The notes beneath the pieces are model-generated. The model ran no database searches. It was not told the origin of the DNA and was given only the letters and a program-made list of their open reading frames with translations. Position numbers and translations under genes: made by a program. Positions 22,036 to 32,000 of a stretch of 32,000 nt of DNA are shown here, one piece after another. This DNA is from Candidatus Saccharimonadota bacterium (GTDB taxonomy: Bacteria > Patescibacteriota > Gracilibacteria > BD1-5 > UBA2023). Position 1 is the first letter of the stretch. Every line of letters begins with the position of its first letter. Location of the stretch: positions 360,001 to 392,000 of the forward strand of contig BAAFHK010000001.1 of NCBI GenBank assembly GCA_042852035.1, read 5' to 3'.

Positions 22036-22422
22036 ATGCCTGAACGTAGAATTTTTGCTGCACTTGCTCTCTCATGAGCTTTACTCGCTTGATGTGGTGA
22101 TTCTGAATGAATAAAAGAATGATCACGCGATCAAGATGCATGGCGATACAGAAATCTTATGCAAGCCGTCTCAAAAAATGTTGCTCGAAGAGTCGGAGAT
22201 ACTTCCTATTATGAGATGAGAGCGTGAGGCGCATGTTATGCTGTAAGCGTTGTCCCGAATATGGAGTTATCTAGAGGAGACTCCATGATGTGATCGCTCA
22301 GGATGCAGGAAGCTCACATGTCGCGTCACTCAAAGATCCAGAAGAATGCAAAAGAGTACGTAGTTAATCTCCCATTCGGGAGATTTTTTTGACTGTCTAA
22401 CCCCTTTGGATACACTGATGAT
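22036..22422 (+). CDS. lipoprotein-like ORF with no table-25 stop codon (3' boundary unresolved)
   Basis: ATG 22036. Signal plus lipobox: MPERRIFAALALSGALLAGCGDSE, where both G of the lipobox region are TGA. The frame runs through a terminator hairpin and TGA 22390-22392 straight into ATG 22423 with no TAA or TAG. The end coordinate is nominal. Confidence 0.4.
22366..22390 (+). terminator. rho-independent terminator-like hairpin inside the open frame
   Basis: AATCTCCC, loop attc, GGGAGATT, followed by T7 (22384-22390). TGA 22390-22392 overlaps the end of the T tract. Confidence 0.55.
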
Positions 22423-23595
22423 ATGACTACTACCAATCTCATCACTTGTCCTCACTGTGGACACCAATTCTCGCTCTCAGACGTCCAGAAACATGAACTC
22501 GAAGAAATGCGAGAAAAAATGAAGGCCGAAGTCGAAGCCGATATGAAGAAACGAGCCTTCGCGTGGGCACAAGAAGAAGTAAAAAAGGCAAAAGACGAAG
22601 CCGAAGAGGCACACAAGAAGGAGGCTCTCGAACTCGAAACTCTCCGCAAGCGAGATGAAGAAGCGAGACGCAAAGAACTCGAATTCTTAAAGCAAGCCCA
22701 AGAATTCGAAACCATGAAGCGAAACCAAGCCCTCGAGCTCGAAAAAGCGAAAATGGAAGAACGAAAGAAGGTCGAGGAAGAAGCAAAAAAGCAAGCGGAA
22801 GAACGAGCCAAGTTCGATACCGAAAAAATGAAGCTCGAATCGGATAAGCGTATCGCCGAACTCCAGAAACAACTCGAAATGACTCAAAAAGCGGTCGAAG
22901 ATGCGAACCGAAAGGCCAATCAATGAAGCATGCAGATCCAAGGAGAAATCCAGGAAGACGCCCTGAAGGCCCTCCTTGAAGCAAACTTCCCGATAGATAT
23001 CATATCTGATGTGGAGAAGGGGATCAAGGGAGCTGATATCATCGAAGAAGTCAGGAACGAATACGGACAATCCGTCGGTATCATCGCCTGGGAGTCGAAA
23101 AATACCAAAGCCTGGAGTGAAGGATGGGTCGAGAAACTGAAGGAAGATCGCCTCCGTGTCGGTGCAGGTGTCTCTGTCATCGTCTCAAGCGTTCTCCCTG
23201 AGTGAATCTCACGATTCGGTCTCTACCGTGATATCTGGGTTACCGACTATGACTCCGTCCTCCCACTCACTATCGCGCTCCGAGCCCATATGATAGAGAT
23301 TGCGAAAGTTCGCAATAGCGTGAAGGGGAAAGATGAGAAAATGGAAGTCCTCTACAACTATCTCATCTCTCCAGAATTCAAGGCAAAAATCGAGAATATC
23401 GTCGAAGCATTCTCGACGATGAAGGACGATCTCGATCGGGAGAAGCGTGCGATGGAGAAAATGTGGAGTGCTCGCGAGAAGCAACTCTCTCGTGTTATCG
23501 ATAATACGGCTCGTCTCTATGGAGATATGCAGGGGCTTATTGGTGCACAGCTTGGGAAGGTGGAGTACTTGGAGCTTGGGGGAGGGGAAGGGTAA
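22423..23595 (+). CDS. DUF2130-like protein: zinc-ribbon, long coiled coil, PD-(D/E)xK-like C-terminal domain
   Basis: Three track ORFs (22423, 22930, 23290) share one frame and join across TGA 22924 and 23203. True stop is TAA 23593-23595. Motifs: ITCPHCGHQF; an E/K/A-rich coiled coil; Q[TGA]SMQIQGEIQEDALKALLEANFP; GADIIEEV..GIIAWESKNTKAWS (a D...ExK pattern); LPE[TGA]ISRFG. Hand-counted GC is about 45-53% in sampled 60-nt stretches. Confidence 0.78.
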
Positions 23596-23707: not shown

Positions 23708-25321
23708 ATGACATATTTTAATTCTGAGATTTTTGAAAAACTGAAAAATGCAAATAGCTTAAAACAATTAGATGATATTATTATTGAAATCTATAGCTAT
23801 GGATGCGAATCCTGATTTAGCCAATGACAAGCATGTCATATATTTTTAACTGCAATGAGAAATGAAAATTTTAATAGTTATTTTAAGTTATGGTTGAATG
23901 ATAAAAATGTAATAAAAAGTAAAGATGAGTATAAGTTTCTTTATTTGCTTTTGCTTTGTTCTGGATTAGCATTTAACTATCTTCAAAATAATCTCTTCCT
24001 TGAGCATAGAAAAACTTTATCAATATGATTAACTGAAATAAGTGAACTTTTATGAATTGATTTAATGCGATTATCTTTTGAGTGCACAAGGATTATTACA
24101 AATAAAGATATAAATCTTAGGAAAATATATTATTCAATCTTTGATAAGGACTTGAATAAGTTTCTTTTCAGAAAAAGTCAACTTATAGTGCGTATAATTT
24201 TACTAAATCTAGTCCAAAGAAAAGCGCTTGTTATTGCAATTAGAAAATTAAAAAAGAGAATGGAGACAAATAGTGTAAAAATTCCTTATATATTTGAATC
24301 TATATTTTGATGCTTATCGGAGATGAGTAAGTGTAAGAATTATGCAAATAAAGAAAAATTAGATTTAAGTAAGATTACATATATTTTCTCTGATGAACTT
24401 GTAATAATGGAGCTCTTAACTCTTGTGACTTCTTGAGTTCAAGAATATCAAGAGAAGTTTGAAAATAAAGAAAAATTTTTACGATTACTTGATGAAATGA
24501 TTGAAAATAAAATCAATTCATTATCTAGTGATGAAGTATGGATTAAAATTGATTGAATAAAAAAGAGACTACATTTATTTTCAGATACCAATCAAACACA
24601 AGACTATTTTACTTTCTGCGATAAAATTTTAATAATAACCATTAAATGGCTAATAGTGGTCCAAAATATACAGCACGCTAAAGATAGGATATGGAAAATT
24701 AGAACATTTATCAGAGAATCTTATGAATGGTTTAGTAATCTTGAATGAATAATTAATCGTTATCTTAATGAGGACTGGGAAAGTATAGAAAAATTACTTC
24801 AAGAGGAAAATACGAGAATTGAGTGGAAGAGTAGTATATCAACTGCAATTGAAATTAAGATGGCGGACTGAGAATTTAAGAAACAAAATTTAAAGAAGAT
24901 AGCTGAAACAGTAATTTCTATGATGAATTCCGAAGGTTGAAATATTATAATTGGCTATATTGAGAATTATAATAAAGTAAGAGATGATATTAAGGTAGAT
25001 TGTTATCAAAAATGAAAATATCATTTTTACGATATAGCATTAGATTTTGAAAGAAACAAATATTCAATAGATAAATTCATGCGTGATATAGAAGATATAA
25101 TAAAAAATGACTTAAGAGTAGAAATAGATGAATTTTCAGAGTTTATCTACTTTGAAAAATTATTTTTGACTGATGATAAAGAAAAATTTATTTGAAATCT
25201 AACTGTAAAAAAAGCGGAAAAAATATTCTTTTCAAGGTGAGAAAATTTATCCGTGCTTTTAAAAAAACGTATGTGAAGACGGAATGAATATTCCGATCCT
25301 CTAACTGAAATGTTTAATTAA
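23708..25321 (+). CDS. large AT-rich protein with a C-terminal AlbA_2 (Schlafen-type) putative DNA-binding domain
   Basis: ATG 23708 is the first ATG after in-frame TAG/TAA. Stop is TAA 25319-25321. The 537 aa were checked line by line with 14 TGA as sense. From about 24806 the sequence reads ENTRIEWKSS..KKIAETVISMMNSEGGNIIIGYIEN...LTVKKAEKIFFSRG..LLKKRMGRRNEYSDPLTEM. This matches the AlbA_2 pattern E..LEFK...I.k.i.AfaN..GG.l.iGv....V.....P.....yiR.Gs.n....E. The N-terminal ~365 aa are unrecognised and helical. Confidence 0.55.
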
Positions 25322-25388: not shown

Positions 25389-25814
25389 ATGAATCAAAAC
25401 ACTCCTCTCTCATTTTTCCTCTACCTCTCCCGCATCGACACCGCACTCCGTCGCCGCATGGACGCGAAGCTTGGTGGACTCGGGTGGTCAGACTTCACCA
25501 TCCTCTACGCGCTCGATAGAGCAGTAGGGAAGCGGATGCGCAGAGTGGATCTCGCCGATGCTATCGGAGTGACCGCATCAGGGATTACGCGACTCCTCCT
25601 CCCGATGGAGAAGATTGGACTCGTGCGTCGTGAGGCACACGATGGAGATGCGCGTGTGAGCTATGTCGCGATTGCTCCTGGGGGTGAGACGAAGCTCACA
25701 GAGGCGATGACTCGAGCAGAGGAATACTTCGCTGATATCATCCACCCGATGGAGATACCAGAGCTTGTTCGTGCGAGTGAGATCATCGAGAAGATCGATG
25801 CAAGGATCGCATAA
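25389..25814 (+). CDS. MarR family transcriptional regulator
   Basis: Intact 141-aa ORF in any code, with no internal TGA and a TAA stop. It has the winged-helix MarR layout: FTILYALDRAVGKRMRRVDLADAIGVTASGITRLLLPMEKIGLVRREAHDGDARVSYVAIAPGG. Hand-counted GC is about 60-65% over 25441-25560, against about 25-40% in neighbouring genes. Confidence 0.9.
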   Translation: MNQNTPLSFFLYLSRIDTALRRRMDAKLGGLGWSDFTILYALDRAVGKRMRRVDLADAIGVTASGITRLLLPMEKIGLVRREAHDGDARVSYVAIAPGGETKLTEAMTRAEEYFADIIHPMEIPELVRASEIIEKIDARIA

Positions 25815-27158: not shown

Positions 27159-27611
27159 ATGGAAGGATTTGATATAAAAGCACTCGATACTGCAGCAGAA
27201 AGAATATGAGGGGAAAAGCTCCTCTCTTTTAGGCTCACAAAAAGTGATGGGGGAATACTGATGGTAAACATTGTTACTCATAGAACCATGAAAAAAGTAG
27301 CAGTACTCCTCTGAGATGATTTTCAACCGATTGAGTTCGATACTCCTTTTGGGAAGAAAGTTTGGGTAAATGGTTGGGGCTTACTTCACGGTACAAAATA
27401 TCTTCTTATAGAAGATGGAGCAACTCATAGCCTCGGGATATATAGGCTGGATGGATCACAGAGTTTTCTCACCTTTCAATCTGCTCTCGGTACTCCTGAG
27501 GTAATCTATCGTATTCGACGCCTTGCACTTAAAAAAGTAGATGAAAATGGCTTCGCTCTCCACCCCATGATATCAACGCTCTTACATATGCCAGCCCTTG
27601 GTCCAGAGTAG
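27159..27611 (+). CDS. hypothetical protein
   Basis: Runs from ATG 27159 to TAG 27609-27611 (150 aa), continuous with two TGA as sense. The sequence looks globular (..KVWVNGWGLLHGTKYLLIEDGATHSLGIYRLDG..). No family recognised. Confidence 0.5.
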
Positions 27612-27636: not shown

Positions 27637-28380
27637 ATGTTTCAAAATTTTGATTTCGACTACTGGCATATAAAAATTCTCTATGATCTATCAGGATATA
27701 TTGTAGCATTTTTGGTAACATGGATATTTTCGAAATATATCCTTCGGAAACATGAGGTTCCAGATGTATTTTCTTCAGAAGAAGAGAAGAGTGAATATAT
27801 GATTTTTACGATTGCTGGAGCAATGTTTTTTGGCGTGCTTATTTCTACATTTGATGGAGCGATGATCCCCGGGAGAAATCCAACTGAAGGAATTCTTCTT
27901 TCCAAATCTATCGCAGGAGCACTCTTTGGTGGAGTTATCACGGCAGAACTTTATAAATACTATCATAAAATTACCCAACCGACTGGGATTCTTTTTCTTC
28001 CTGGTATCGTGCTCGGCCTCTGAGTATGAAGGATTGGGGCTATAGTTACTGGTATACGAGACTTTACCTATGGACTCCCGACGAATCTTCCATGGGGGAT
28101 GGATTTTGGGGATGGGGTACTCAGGCATCCGACGATGATCTACGAGATGATACTCCTTATGGTATTCTTTACAGTTTTTCTTTTATGACTATACTCTTTT
28201 TCGAGAAAATGGTGGATACAAAGAGGGTTTTATGTGTTTATTCTTGTTTATTTTTTGTATCGTTTTTTGGTTGGATTTATCCAGCCGTATAGTCATTTTT
28301 GGTTCGGACTTTCGACGTATCAAGTGATAGCAATACCTATGATTCTCTACGGACTTTATATGTTGCGAAAAAAATTCTAA
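27637..28380 (+). CDS. lgt: prolipoprotein diacylglyceryl transferase (Lgt) family protein
   Basis: Track ORF 27637-28023 continues through TGA 28021, 28027 and 28186 to TAA 28378-28380 (247 aa). Polytopic membrane protein with Lgt-like motifs: G[TGA]V[TGA]RIGAIVTG, LPWGMDFGDGVLRHPTMIYE, YFLYRFLVGFIQPY. Confidence 0.72.
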
Positions 28381-28390
28381 TACTTCCTTT

Positions 28391-28699
28391 ATGTCTCTCA
28401 GAAACATTCTCTGGAAAACAGCCGCTGTTATTGTTATCACTCTCTGATGAGCTGCTATAACTTGTGGAGGGAATTTGATGATAGGTGCAAAATTCTTTTT
28501 TGATATATTCGGAGACTTTCTCTATGTCATATGGTTTATAGAGATATTCGCCATTTTTATATGGAGCGTGCGGAGATTTTTCTTTCAAACCCAAAACTGG
28601 TCAGATCAGCCGACGTATTTAAAGTGGCTTATTTTTTTGATTCCTCTTTTTGGAGGGATATTTATTTTTTATTTCCTGATGGTGATTTCAGGTATTTAA
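28391..28699 (+). CDS. small membrane protein
   Basis: ATG 28391 lies 10 nt after the lgt-family stop, in frame with track ORF 28475-28699 across two TGA (102 aa). The N-terminus MSLRNILWKTAAVIVITLGGAAITCGG resembles a signal or lipoprotein-type peptide. Two or three TM segments follow. Confidence 0.5.
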
Positions 28700-28711
28700 T
28701 TATTTTTCTCT

Positions 28712-29431
28712 ATGTCAGACATGAAATCTTCTTCAGCAGATGAGATCGAATCTATTCTTGCAAAAACTGATATTACAGGGGTAAAATCCGTTTATTTTTC
28801 TCTAAATAATGGAGAAGGATTCCGCGTTACATCGGAAAAAGTAATCAAACTTTCTCGCTATATTGCTGATTCTCTTGGGAAAACAAAGTTTGAACCCAAT
28901 GAACTTAGTACTGCTTTTAAATTTCTTGTAAAGAATATAAAAAGTAACTTTGACCCAGAAGAAAGAAAAACCCTGACGAATTCTATTGAAGAATTTATAG
29001 AGAACTGAGGAGAAATACGATTTGAATACAAGGAATTTTTAGAATTTTCCGCTATTGAACAACCAAATCAATCTCACGAATGAAGAGAAAAAAATGAAGA
29101 TGCTCACTCAAATGATCGCATAACCTTTAAGCGACTACTTTTATCAGTGCTCATATTACATCCCATTTCAGGGGCGGTCGGATATACACTCTTTCTTCTT
29201 ATCGTATTTCTGTCGGATTCTATCTCTCCTGAAATTGGTAGGAATTGCATTTTTGCTTGTCCGATTCTTGCGATATGGGGAATTATTACGATAGCTCTCT
29301 GATATTTTTTCTGGAAACAAGTACTTGGGATGAGTACTAAAAAACTCATTCTTATCTACTTTCTTTCCCTCCTAATTATCTTCTCGGTGGCTCTTGTTAT
29401 TTGCTGAGGACTTCTACTTATTCTTTCATAA
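28712..29431 (+). CDS. membrane protein with a soluble N-terminal domain
   Basis: Track ORF 28712-29008 continues through TGA 29006, 29081, 29300 and 29405 to TAA 29429-29431 (239 aa). The C-terminal half holds three or four TM segments (LLLSVLILHPISGAVGYTLFLLIVFL, ACPILAIWGIITIALGYFF, LILIYFLSLLIIFSVALVICGGLLLIL). Confidence 0.58.
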
Positions 29432-29436
29432 AAACT

Positions 29437-30864
29437 ATGACTCGATATTCCCTAGAGTATGATCTTTTTCTCGGTGTCACGGAGTCATTTTGTCATCTTT
29501 GCAATAATAAAGAAAAACTTATTCCAGCACATATTGTCACGAAAGGAGAGAGTGTACTTTTGCGAAAATTTTGTAACAAATGTGGTGAATCCTTCGCAAC
29601 GGTTTCGACAGATTTCGACTACTATAAAAAATGTAATGAATATCTAAAGAAGCCGGATCTTCCAGAAATAGCTCTAACTCCAATACTTCGGGGTTGTCCT
29701 TTTGATTGCGGAGTTTGTCCGCAACATCAGAATCATCCCTGTCTTGCGCTTTTCAATATCAATGATGAATGCAACATGAAATGCAATATCTGTTATCATT
29801 CTTCAGAGCCAGGAAGTGGGAATTTTAGAAGTATCGATGAAATAAAGAAAATGCACGAGACACTTCTTCAGGTAGAGTCGACCCCCGATCTTATCCAGGT
29901 TACGGGAGGGGAGCCATCGATTCATCCAGATATTATTGAAATTTTGAAGTACCTAAAATCCTGACCCGTTCGACACCTTATGCTCAACACAAACGGAATT
30001 CGTATATCACATGATGAGGATTTTGTAAAAGAACTTAAAGATATTGGAAAGGGGTTTGAGGTCTATCTGCAATTCGATTCACTCAATCCAGAGGCCCTAA
30101 ATAGTATACGAAATGCTGATATGACGAAAGTTCGACAGAAGGCACTTGAAATGCTTGAAAAATATCATATCTCAACGACATTGGTTTGCGTGATTGAAAA
30201 GGGGGTCAATGATGAGGAAATTCCAAAACTTATAGAACATGCAAAGTCATGGAAGTGTGTACGGGGGATAGTTTTTCAGCCGATACAAAATGTTTGAAGA
30301 AATGCCATTGAAGATCATGACTACCGAATCACGCTCTCGGAAATCCGTAATATTATAGTGAAAGATGAATCAAATCCATTTGCTGAGGATGATATGATTC
30401 CTCTCCCATGTGATCCGCATAAAATTTGTGTCGGATACGCGATCAAGAATGGAAAAGATATCCTTCCGGTAACTGGAAAAATTCCAAGAGAAATGATTAC
30501 TGAACAGAAGGGGACAATTGCTTTTGAACAGGACAAAGAGTTTATCAAAACAGTAGTTCATGCTGTAACACTAGATACGGCTCTCGGTGAAAATATTATC
30601 AATAAAGAAAGCGTAAAACGTAAGCTTTTCTGTTGTTGGCCAGAATTTATTGCCCCAGAAGATATGACCTACGAGAGAGTATTTCGTATCGTTATCATGG
30701 AGTTCACCGATATTTATAATTTCGACAGCACCAATATTAAGCGAGAATGTAACTTTATGATCGAGCCCGGTAAGGTAATACCATTTTCTACTTACAATAT
30801 GGGACTTTCTCGTAGTTCAGAAAAGCCAAATCTAAGAGAAAAACTCGAAGCATGGAAAAAATAG
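29437..30864 (+). CDS. radical SAM enzyme, COG1964-type (GDGT-MAS / tetraether lipid synthase Tes-like architecture)
   Basis: ATG 29437 lies 5 nt after the upstream stop. Three track ORFs (29401, 29980, 30358) share one frame and join across TGA 29962 and 30295. Stop is TAG 30862-30864 (475 aa). Order of elements: an N-terminal CxxC...CxxC pair (CHLCNN...CNKCG), a second Cys cluster (GCPFDCGVCPQHQNHPC), the radical SAM CxxxCxxC (ECNMKCNICY), then QVTGGEPSIHP, MLNTNGIRI and VFQPIQNVG. Confidence 0.8.
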
Positions 30865-30885: not shown

Positions 30886-31413
30886 ATGTTTCACTCGACC
30901 ATCAAGCGAACAAAGCGTCGCACTCTTGCACTTCAGATAGATCATGAAGGAAATCTTATTATCCGTGCTCCGAACCGTATGCCCATGAGTCTTATCGAGG
31001 AATTTATAGCACAAAAAATAGACTGGATAAAAAAACATCAAAAGAGGATACAAGAAAAAAATAGTCTGCAACCACAAAAAACTTACAATAAAAATGAGTT
31101 CTTAACCGCTAAAAAAGAATTACAAGACTATCTTCTTCTAAGAGTACGAATGCTCTGGGAAAACACTAAACTTCCCCCCTATACTTCACTCAAAGTAACT
31201 CATTCGAATAAAAGATGGTGAAGTTGTAGCGGGAAGAATGGACTTTGTTTTTCTTATAGGCTTCACCAGTATATCGATGAAGATCCGAAGATTATCGATG
31301 CAATCATATACCATGAGCTTGCTCATCTAAAAGAGAAAAATCATGGAAAAAAATTTTGGGATATTGTTTTTTTCCTCGAGCCCAACTATAGAGATATCAT
31401 GAAAAGACTTTAA
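30886..31413 (+). CDS. YgjP/DUF45-type (M48-like) zinc metallopeptidase
   Basis: Track ORF 30886-31221 continues through TGA 31219-31221 to TAA 31411-31413 (175 aa). KRW[TGA=G]SCS matches the family RWGSC motif. The HExxH site is IIYHELAHLKEKNHGKKFW. Confidence 0.85.
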
Positions 31414-31419
31414 TTTTTA

Positions 31420-32000
31420 TTAGACAATATTTCCTATTTCTTCAGAAACTTTATTATCCGAATACCCATCAACAATATATGTTTTAATCGGTTTCTGCCT
31501 TCCTTTTATAGACTCTTCGGAAAGGAAGTGAATCCCAAAACTATCAAGTTTTTCGATCCCATTGTAGGTTGTTTCACTGATAATAATGCGAGCATTATAG
31601 GTTCGAGTAAGTTTTTCAAGTGCAGCAGTGATATTCACGGCTTGTCATATCACCGTAGCCTCCATGCGATCTTCAGTACCAACAGTTCAGAGAGTTACTC
31701 TTCATCGATTGATTCCGATGCCGACATGAATTTCCTTTCAGAGAGTATTTTGTTGAAATGTTTTTATATATTCTTGTATTTCAATAGCAGCAGAGAGAGA
31801 TGCATCGGTATTTTTTCCATCAAATATAGCAAGTATCCCATCACCGAGATATTTATCGATGTACCCCCCATACTTTGTTATACACTCACCGATACCATCG
31901 AAATAGATATTGAGAAGCAAGAGGGTTCTATAAGGATCATGGATCTCTTCGCACATAGTAGAGAATCACTTTATATCAAGAAACATTATAGTGTATTCTT
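31420..32000 (-). CDS. class III adenylate/guanylate cyclase domain protein, 5'-truncated at the window edge
   Basis: Stop is TAA 31420-31422. Track ORFs 31420-31638 and 31738-31956 join across four TGA. The frame remains open to position 32000. Motifs: MFLDIKGFST, KYLGDGILAIFDG, VGIGINRG[TGA]RVTLG[TGA]TVGTEDRMEATVIG[TGA]QAVNITAALE. Confidence 0.85.

Follow-up and report, generated by a model that had tools for sequence, protein, structure and literature searches.

A Tes-like radical SAM enzyme partnered with an Lgt-family paralogue and cysteine microproteins in a gracilibacterial genome and across bacteria

The closest solved relative of the enzyme considered here is the radical S-adenosylmethionine (SAM) protein GDGT-MAS, also known as Tes (MJ0619; structures 7TOL and 7TOM), in which the N-terminal ribbon, [4Fe-4S]N and radical SAM motifs have been defined (PMC9433317). 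GDGT-MAS was shown to bind phospholipids, bacterial ones included, and to make a carbon-sulfur (C-S) intermediate on an auxiliary cluster (PMC9433317). Bacterial homologues of Tes were listed by Zeng et al., who proposed, without proof, that they function in the synthesis of branched glycerol dialkyl glycerol tetraethers (brGDGT) or membrane-spanning lipids (PMC8941075). Producers of membrane-spanning lipids, and of diabolic or iso-diabolic acid, use the enzyme Mss, and most of them are without Tes homologues (Sahonero-Canavesi et al.; PMC13159169). A 2026 review presents bacterial Tes homologues only as bioinformatic detections, none of them characterised, and never mentions Lgt or lipoproteins (PMC13459092). 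Here we describe four adjacent genes in a 32,000-nucleotide stretch of DNA from a gracilibacterial genome (GCA_042852035.1, contig BAAFHK010000001.1, positions 360,001 to 392,000; hereafter the window), which encode a divergent Lgt-family paralogue (P0002), two membrane proteins bearing a glycine-flanked cysteine (P0003 and P0004) and a Tes-like radical SAM enzyme (P0001). The set exemplifies a widespread cassette that is undescribed in the literature searched; text searches pairing Lgt with radical SAM or Tes terms found no published description of it. A large bacterial Tes-like branch is in this way tied to an Lgt paralogue and to cysteine microproteins, which points to a concrete, testable product.

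Linkage of the cassette genes across bacteria

The loci analysed numbered 86 and were made up of 80 named genome loci of radical SAM relatives, further collected loci and the window itself. Relatives of P0001 with 64-76% identity were found in Gracilibacteria and Campylobacterota, and relatives with 42-52% identity in Gamma- and Alphaproteobacteria, Planctomycetota (including Kuenenia), Gemmatimonadota, Binatota, Vulcanimicrobiota and Brevibacillus (Bacillota). The branch comprises 348 clusters at E <= 1e-30 in a library clustered at 50% identity, and the cassette also occurs in cultured isolates such as Roseovarius, Dongia and Brevibacillus. Using a hidden Markov model (HMM) of the paralogue, an Lgt-like gene was found to adjoin the radical SAM gene in 79 of the 86 loci, in at least eight phyla. 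The pair is thus conserved far beyond the Gracilibacteria, the group in which the first-pass annotation of this DNA had proposed to look for it. Five of the seven non-adjacent loci have the radical SAM gene at a contig edge, with no room for a partner, and in loci L036 and L055 no Lgt-like open reading frame (ORF) was detected in about 0.8-1.1 kb upstream of the radical SAM gene. Usually the Lgt-like gene comes first and its frame overlaps that of the radical SAM gene by 7-30 nt; in Planctomycetota the two stand in the opposite order. All-against-all BLAST clustering of the neighbours gave no further conserved family beyond clade-specific microproteins and lipoproteins.

Other evidence likewise joins the two enzymes. 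Of 61 genomes in the order to which the window belongs, five have the radical SAM gene, and the paralogue is found in these five and in no others. Two natural fusions from the 50%-identity library (P0130, 733 aa; P0247, 671 aa) have an Lgt-like N-terminus and a radical SAM C-terminus; the C-terminus of Lgt is cytoplasmic, and by analogy the radical SAM domain of such fusions would lie on the same side of the membrane. Paralogue, Tes-like enzyme and cysteine microproteins very probably work together as a single functional unit.

The microproteins are the third component of this unit. In almost every locus, one to four (or more) small same-strand ORFs lie between or beside the two enzyme genes and encode proteins of one to three hydrophobic helices, in which a lone conserved Cys with flanking glycine is located in or at the end of a transmembrane helix. 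The motif is [LF]x[SGA]GGC in Alpha- and Gammaproteobacteria and Planctomycetota, PSGLCTG in Rhizomicrobium and [IV][TS]CGG in Gracilibacteria, including tandem relatives in other cassettes, while in Campylobacterota proteins of ~210 aa with a classical lipobox, S[MLT]GC, stand at the microprotein position. A strict Cys motif within a hydrophobic window was found in 90 of 544 adjacent small ORFs on the same strand, compared with 3 of 538 on the opposite strand; counted by locus, an ORF with the strict motif was present on the same strand in 59 of 85 and on the opposite strand in 3 of 85.

Both membrane proteins of the four-gene unit carry a [IV][TS/I]CGG motif. P0003 begins MSLRNILWKTAAVIVITLGGAAITCGG, and a homologue with an AVTCGG motif (44% identity) is encoded in the cassette of a genome of the same genus (G001; locus L019). 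P0004 consists of a soluble N-terminal domain of ~115 aa followed by C-terminal transmembrane helices and has no match among the Pfam and NCBIfam families; in genome G017 (locus L018) the corresponding place in the cassette is taken by a homologue (32% identity, E 5e-35) whose terminal IVCGG is aligned to the VICGG of P0004. The usual lipobox of the host genome, L[STA]S-C, differs from the CGG motif of P0003 and P0004. Genome-wide, a CGG motif in a hydrophobic context was found in 5 of 7172 ORFs, two of which are P0003 and P0004. In two other Gracilibacteria loci (L024, 3900-6000; L017, 4850-6570), three to five tandem small membrane ORFs with CGG lie between the enzyme genes, in what looks like an expanded substrate set.

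Comparison with Tes, TrsS and Lgt

P0001 matches Pfam Radical_SAM (PF04055) and Zn_ribbon_HMPTM (PF23545). GDGT-MAS is its sole close solved relative by sequence (7TOL, E 2e-51; 27% identity). An AlphaFold2 (AF2) model of P0001 was built on 40 family members, with a predicted local distance difference test (pLDDT) score of 81, a predicted template modelling (pTM) score of 0.85 and low confidence at residues 375-410. Foldseek matched this model to 7TOL and 7TOM with template modelling (TM) scores of 0.79 and 0.78 over 487-494 columns, that is, over the full length; the next match, MoaA, reached 0.38. The assignment of P0001 to the COG1964/Tes type, made in the first-pass annotation from a series of motifs that were all found in the 475-aa protein, is borne out by these results, with 7TOL closest in both sequence and fold and membership of no known peptide-maturase or cofactor subfamily.

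Like GDGT-MAS, P0001 has, in order, a CxxC...CxxC/H ribbon, a GCPxDCGxCPxH motif, a CX3CX2C core and a C-terminal domain. The ribbon is formed by C19, C22, C46 and C49, position 49 being Cys in this clade and His elsewhere. The remaining ribbon positions are invariant in the 40 family members, as are the N-terminal cluster motif (C87, C91, C94 and H97, within G86CPFDCGVCPQHQNHPC102) and the radical SAM cluster C112NMKC116NIC119 (CX3CX2C); the motifs G157GEP and N184TNG are also present. In the C-terminal domain, C325, C399/C400 and C438 are invariant across 40 Lgt-linked members, C399/C400 falling inside the low-confidence segment of the model, and M421 aligns with the labile Met439 of MJ0619. 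The C-terminal cysteine positions of Tes, where the identities of the [4Fe-4S]C ligands of MJ0619 were taken from the alignment, correspond to I420, E437 and S451 in P0001, with C438 alone shared, and positions 420 and 451 are never Cys in the 40 Lgt-linked members. The strictly conserved Tyr459 of Tes aligns with M441, a position held by Met or Phe in the family. At position 430, Cys is found in 21 of 30 distant members, and Asp takes its place in this clade.

The best NCBIfam models for P0001 were TrsS (NF045646; 256.2 bits, cut-off 490) and Tes (NF045702; 219.6 bits, cut-off 450), with all other models below 120 bits. Six other Lgt-linked radical SAM members scored 239-298 bits on the Tes model, and all members tested fell far under the TrsS cut-off. 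The likeness to Tes claimed at first holds for the fold and the N-terminal motifs, but it does not extend to the equivalog score or the C-terminal cysteines. P0001 is built like Tes yet is no Tes equivalog, and its third cluster site, if present, would be wired differently. Unlike Tes, P0001 occurs in bacteria, and its obligate partners are an Lgt paralogue and Cys microproteins; the Tes papers examined mention no Lgt partner, and the Lgt family had no match in four archaeal control genomes. Mss, the bacterial membrane-spanning lipid synthase (Thermotoga, Thermoanaerobacter; PMC13159169), is likewise a radical SAM enzyme; it acts on bacterial lipid tails and is remotely related to Tes. It differs in belonging to another radical SAM lineage, with no Lgt partner or microproteins reported, a distinction drawn from its published description.

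TrsS, a radical SAM (seleno)protein family, is the best-scoring curated family for P0001, and the alignment is nearly full length, including the C-terminal domain. The name is said to come from Haft and Tolstoy in 2025. True TrsS was found in 22 of 301 Bacillota genomes, and in 12 true TrsS loci its neighbours were methyltransferase, small Cys-rich, PaaK-like, XdhC-like and MobA-like genes. None of the 12 loci has an Lgt-like gene, and none of the TrsS neighbour families occurs in the window. The possibility that the P0001 cassette is a TrsS system was rejected, given the score under the cut-off and the different gene context. By labels from ORF reading, the conserved TrsS block of Bacillota (loci L112-L123) consists of genes for a large oxidoreductase, a SAM methyltransferase, a Cys-rich protein of 150 aa, TrsS, a PaaK-like ligase and proteins resembling XdhC and MobA. 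In addition, some TrsS-type enzymes are fused to a methyltransferase (P0220) or to a MobA-like domain (P0240).

P0002 matches the Pfam LGT family (PF01790) with 66.1 bits (E 3.9e-18; cut-off 24.9) and scores 39.6 bits on the NCBIfam Lgt equivalog NF000778 (cut-off 334). Its AF2 model has a pLDDT of 91 and seven helices. When a profile of 30 rSAM-linked Lgt paralogues was searched against the PDB, it matched only E. coli Lgt (5AZB, E 2.6e-9); phmmer of P0002 alone against the PDB gave no relevant match. Like E. coli Lgt, the phosphatidylglycerol:prolipoprotein diacylglyceryl transferase (5AZB/5AZC, PF01790), P0002 has seven predicted transmembrane helices and counterparts of R143, R239, Y235 and the H196-P-x-Q-L-Y-E segment. 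R132, R209 and Y205 of P0002 correspond to R143, R239 and Y235 and are invariant in the 30 family members, and H164-P165-x-x-x-Y169-E170 aligns with H196-P-S-Q-L-Y201-E202. R143 and R239 are the essential arginines of Lgt. As is also the case for Lgt, the candidate substrates, encoded next to P0002, have a Cys within an N-terminal hydrophobic helix or where it ends; in contrast to Lgt substrates, they bear GGC or CGG motifs and no standard lipobox. The paralogue further differs from Lgt in being a second or third copy beside a canonical lgt and in having a much shorter periplasmic head region, and the residues E104, K107, D142, T144 and D159 are invariant and specific to its family.

At position 135, which lies at the Lgt N146 position within a GR[IL]GC signature, 90% of the paralogue family has Cys. 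Ala135 is restricted to the Gracilibacteria paralogues, and the microproteins of these same members carry CGG and not GGC, a pairing that may represent enzyme-substrate co-variation.

The first-pass annotation had left room for P0002 being simply the only lgt of its genome. This was rejected, as a canonical lgt lies at C1:698613 with all the hallmarks, namely the motifs FHGG, GRLGNFINQE and YGSFRLIAENFR and both H103 and N146; an lsp gene is found elsewhere in the same genome. On the Pfam LGT model, the canonical copy scored 157.6 bits, P0002 61.8 and a third copy 39. In each of ten further cassette genomes tested, a canonical Lgt (216-289 bits) likewise accompanies the paralogue (62-74 bits). 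The third Lgt-family gene (G000:C3:172448-173224; L021 4437-5258) encodes 273 aa and is more divergent; it is flanked by an RNase Y-like gene (label from ORF reading) and a gene for a large membrane protein, with no radical SAM neighbour.

Candidate reactions of the cassette

What is directly observed, from the arrangement of the genes and their family and fold assignments to conserved residues, co-occurrence, fusions and an enriched microprotein motif, is the starting point for the mechanism that we tentatively favour, a dedicated S-lipidation of the microprotein Cys by the Lgt paralogue together with radical tailoring of lipid tails by the cytoplasmic enzyme. Three of its elements are inferred: the role of the microproteins as substrates, the transferase activity of the paralogue, and a lipid tail as the substrate of the radical SAM enzyme. 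The paralogue would still bind phospholipid, as suggested by its retention of the two arginines essential in Lgt, and would move a lipid moiety onto the conserved Cys of the co-encoded microproteins (here P0003 and P0004), in a dedicated channel apart from the housekeeping Lgt/Lsp pathway. Its cytoplasmic GDGT-MAS-like partner would tailor an unactivated carbon of the lipid hydrocarbon tails via a 5'-deoxyadenosyl radical, either before transfer, on the donor lipid, or after it. If the product is a lipidated microprotein, the cassette would represent a second, specialised branch of bacterial lipoprotein biogenesis and a new type of Tes-like reaction.

A new kind of protein lipidation, in which the microprotein Cys is joined to a radically tailored lipid, is in our view unlikely and could take one of two forms. 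The Cys might receive an S-diacylglyceryl anchor whose tails would be coupled by the Tes-like enzyme, either to each other inside the anchor or to a lipid in the other leaflet, the latter giving a membrane-spanning product. Otherwise, a direct thioether from the Cys sulfur to a tail carbon might be formed via the auxiliary cluster. In this genome such a lipidation would act on host-derived lipids, and the close kinship of the cassette with that of Campylobacterota would be a trace of genes exchanged with organisms that are likely hosts or neighbours.

Several observations weigh against the favoured combination of S-lipidation and tail tailoring. In P0002, H103 and N146 of E. coli Lgt, residues reportedly important in mutagenesis work on this enzyme, are replaced by A93 and A135, and the Gracilibacteria paralogues lack both the near-invariant Cys135 of their own family and a counterpart of E243. 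Because these residues are missing, the paralogue may be no transferase. Foldseek of the P0002 model against the PDB gave no match at E <= 0.001, with 5AZB outside the top 50, a result that we count neither for nor against homology. On the side of the microproteins, about 30% of loci have no ORF with the strict motif, and many of the proteobacterial microprotein cysteines are 6-8 residues inside the helix, deeper than a lipobox Cys. As for P0001, Cys is absent at two of the three alignable C-terminal positions of Tes and Tyr459 is not kept, so the [4Fe-4S]C chemistry of Tes may not apply. The COG1964 superfamily is functionally diverse, and Tes homology alone is therefore no proof of a lipid substrate; the neighbours of true TrsS are not lipid genes. 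Finally, an Lgt-like topology would put the active site of the paralogue at the outer leaflet, on the opposite face of the membrane from the cytoplasmic radical SAM enzyme.

Some of these points would suit a cassette that does not lipidate protein at all. It is possible, if somewhat improbable, that the product of the pair is a modified free membrane lipid, such as one with its tails coupled to each other (macrocyclic or membrane-spanning) or a tail-tailored phospholipid. The Lgt-like protein would then be a phospholipid-binding membrane subunit that presents the tails, and the microproteins would be scaffolds or regulators. This accords with the full-length match to the GDGT-MAS fold, with a paralogue that has lost H103 and N146 and kept the two essential arginines, and with the loci that have no motif ORF; the fusions and overlapping genes suggest a stable two-subunit enzyme, and bacterial Tes homologues have been proposed to make membrane-spanning lipids (PMC8941075). 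However, the strong, strand-specific enrichment of the Cys microproteins and their variable copy number look like properties of substrates, the C-terminal cysteine positions and Tyr459 of Tes are not kept, and diabolic and iso-diabolic acid are made in organisms that use Mss and mostly have no Tes homologues (PMC13159169). A direct radical modification of the microprotein would take account of its substrate-like features, as tandem, variable, short genes with one invariant Cys are typical of precursor peptides. Such a reaction would resemble the maturation of ribosomally synthesized and post-translationally modified peptides (RiPPs) and might form a thioether from the Cys to a lipid or peptide carbon, the Lgt-like protein only docking the enzyme at the membrane or binding the substrate helix. 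C325, C399/C400 and C438 could hold a cluster with an open site for the substrate thiol, and GDGT-MAS provides a precedent in the C-S intermediate on its auxiliary cluster (PMC9433317). We consider this quite unlikely, since SPASM, twitch and RRE domains are all missing from P0001, even the best-matching peptide-maturase structures have TM scores of only 0.31-0.37, and the Cys lies toward the outer end of the helix (a topology read from sequence) while the enzyme is cytoplasmic.

The two remaining explanations leave lipid tails out altogether. The higher score of P0001 on the TrsS model than on the Tes model, with a full-length alignment, and the cofactor-like neighbourhood of TrsS could indicate non-lipid chemistry on a cofactor or small molecule, with the Lgt-like protein recruited for an unrelated membrane role. 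This is very unlikely, as an Lgt-like gene is missing from all 12 TrsS loci, the conserved TrsS neighbours are not conserved around the cassette, and every member tested scores far below the TrsS cut-off. An adjacency by chance, in which an ordinary lgt and lipoprotein genes happen to lie beside an unrelated radical SAM gene, would agree with the Pfam LGT match only; it conflicts with the canonical lgt elsewhere in the genome, is refuted by the adjacency across phyla, the identical phyletic pattern and the fusions, and can be set aside as practically excluded.

Evolution and genomic setting of the cassette

In the radical SAM tree, the window protein falls in a fully supported clade of Campylobacterota and Gracilibacteria with a long stem. 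The cassette version in the window is closest to the Campylobacterota version, and the tree gives no direction of transfer. In G001, a genome of the same genus (L019, G001:C34), and in G017 (L018, G017:C4, 4198-7436), the radical SAM protein is only 41% identical to P0001, has a CxxH ribbon and branches elsewhere, whereas the Lgt paralogue is 68-69% identical and belongs to a single Gracilibacteria clade (99% by the Shimodaira-Hasegawa-like approximate likelihood ratio test, SH-aLRT). In an approximately unbiased (AU) test, the hypothesis that the radical SAM genes of all Gracilibacteria share one clade was rejected (p 1.3e-8); the group was named after the tree had been seen, and it involves long branches. 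Given this divergent radical SAM lineage beside a single-clade paralogue, the radical SAM partner seems to have been exchanged in place within an otherwise conserved cassette.

The first-pass annotation had connected the locus with the lipid scavenging attributed to bacteria of the Candidate Phyla Radiation (CPR). In line with scavenging, neither a ketoacyl synthase (PF00109) nor a CDP-alcohol phosphatidyltransferase (PF01066), which serve as markers for the synthesis of fatty acids and of phospholipids, was found in the roughly 91%-complete genome, and if these families are truly absent, the lipid used by the cassette in this host would have to be scavenged. Scavenging does not explain the module itself, because the same cassette is found in many non-CPR bacteria. 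If the cassette does act on lipids here, it would be a rare case of active lipid or envelope remodelling in an organism apparently unable to make its own lipids.

The four genes are intact ORFs on the + strand under translation table 25 (TGA=Gly), and they are separated by gaps of 10, 12 and 5 nt, as the first-pass annotation had stated (Table 1). A reading of 27.6-30.9 kb under table 11 was rejected: all four genes are then broken by TGA into short frames, which table 25 restores. In gene order, they contain 2, 3, 2 and 4 in-frame TGA codons, all at glycine positions, and one TGA encodes G287, which is nearly invariant in the radical SAM family. The longest ORF for P0001 begins at TTG 29401; the ATG at 29437 was chosen as its start because homologues begin at the MxxYS..YDLF of that ATG. 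The G+C content of the cassette (0.35-0.39) agrees with that of its surroundings, rpoB and rpoC lie inside the same window, and the contig is 750 kb long. With the in-frame TGA codons at glycine, these features exclude contamination, and the four genes are a genuine part of this chromosome.

Table 1. Coordinates, in window positions, of the cassette genes and of the neighbouring genes discussed in the text
Feature	Position	Strand	Description
P0002, divergent Lgt-family paralogue	27637-28380	+	247 aa; seven predicted transmembrane helices
P0003, small membrane protein	28391-28699	+	102 aa; signal-peptide-like N-terminus ending AITC25GG; candidate substrate
P0004, membrane protein	28712-29431	+	239 aa; C-terminal transmembrane helices ending VIC231GG
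P0001, COG1964 / Tes-TrsS-type radical SAM enzyme	29437-30864	+	475 aa
Upstream ORF	27159-27611		150 aa
YgjP-like metallopeptidase gene	30886-31413	+	begins 21 nt past the radical SAM stop codon
Adenylate/guanylate cyclase domain gene	31420-31986	-	converges on the YgjP-like gene
MarR-family regulator gene	25389-25814	+	141 aa
Gene with weak Schlafen/AlbA_2 match	23708-25321	+	537 aa
DUF2130 protein gene	22036-23595	+	519 aa

Neither the upstream 150-aa ORF nor the YgjP-like gene downstream is a recurrent feature of the other Gracilibacteria cassettes, and both were kept out of the unit; like the YgjP-like gene, the cyclase domain gene is absent from the cassettes of L017 and L018. Further upstream, the MarR-family regulator gene has a G+C content of about 0.48-0.5 and no TGA, compared with 0.25-0.39 in its neighbours, and looks like a recent foreign acquisition. 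Beside it, the gene for the 537-aa protein has a G+C content of 0.25-0.27, and its weak match to Schlafen/AlbA_2 (E 8e-4) suggests that it may be a defence-type gene. The segment encoding the DUF2130 protein is unlike the rest of the window, with a G+C content of 0.46-0.49 and a strong A-over-T skew (0.42).

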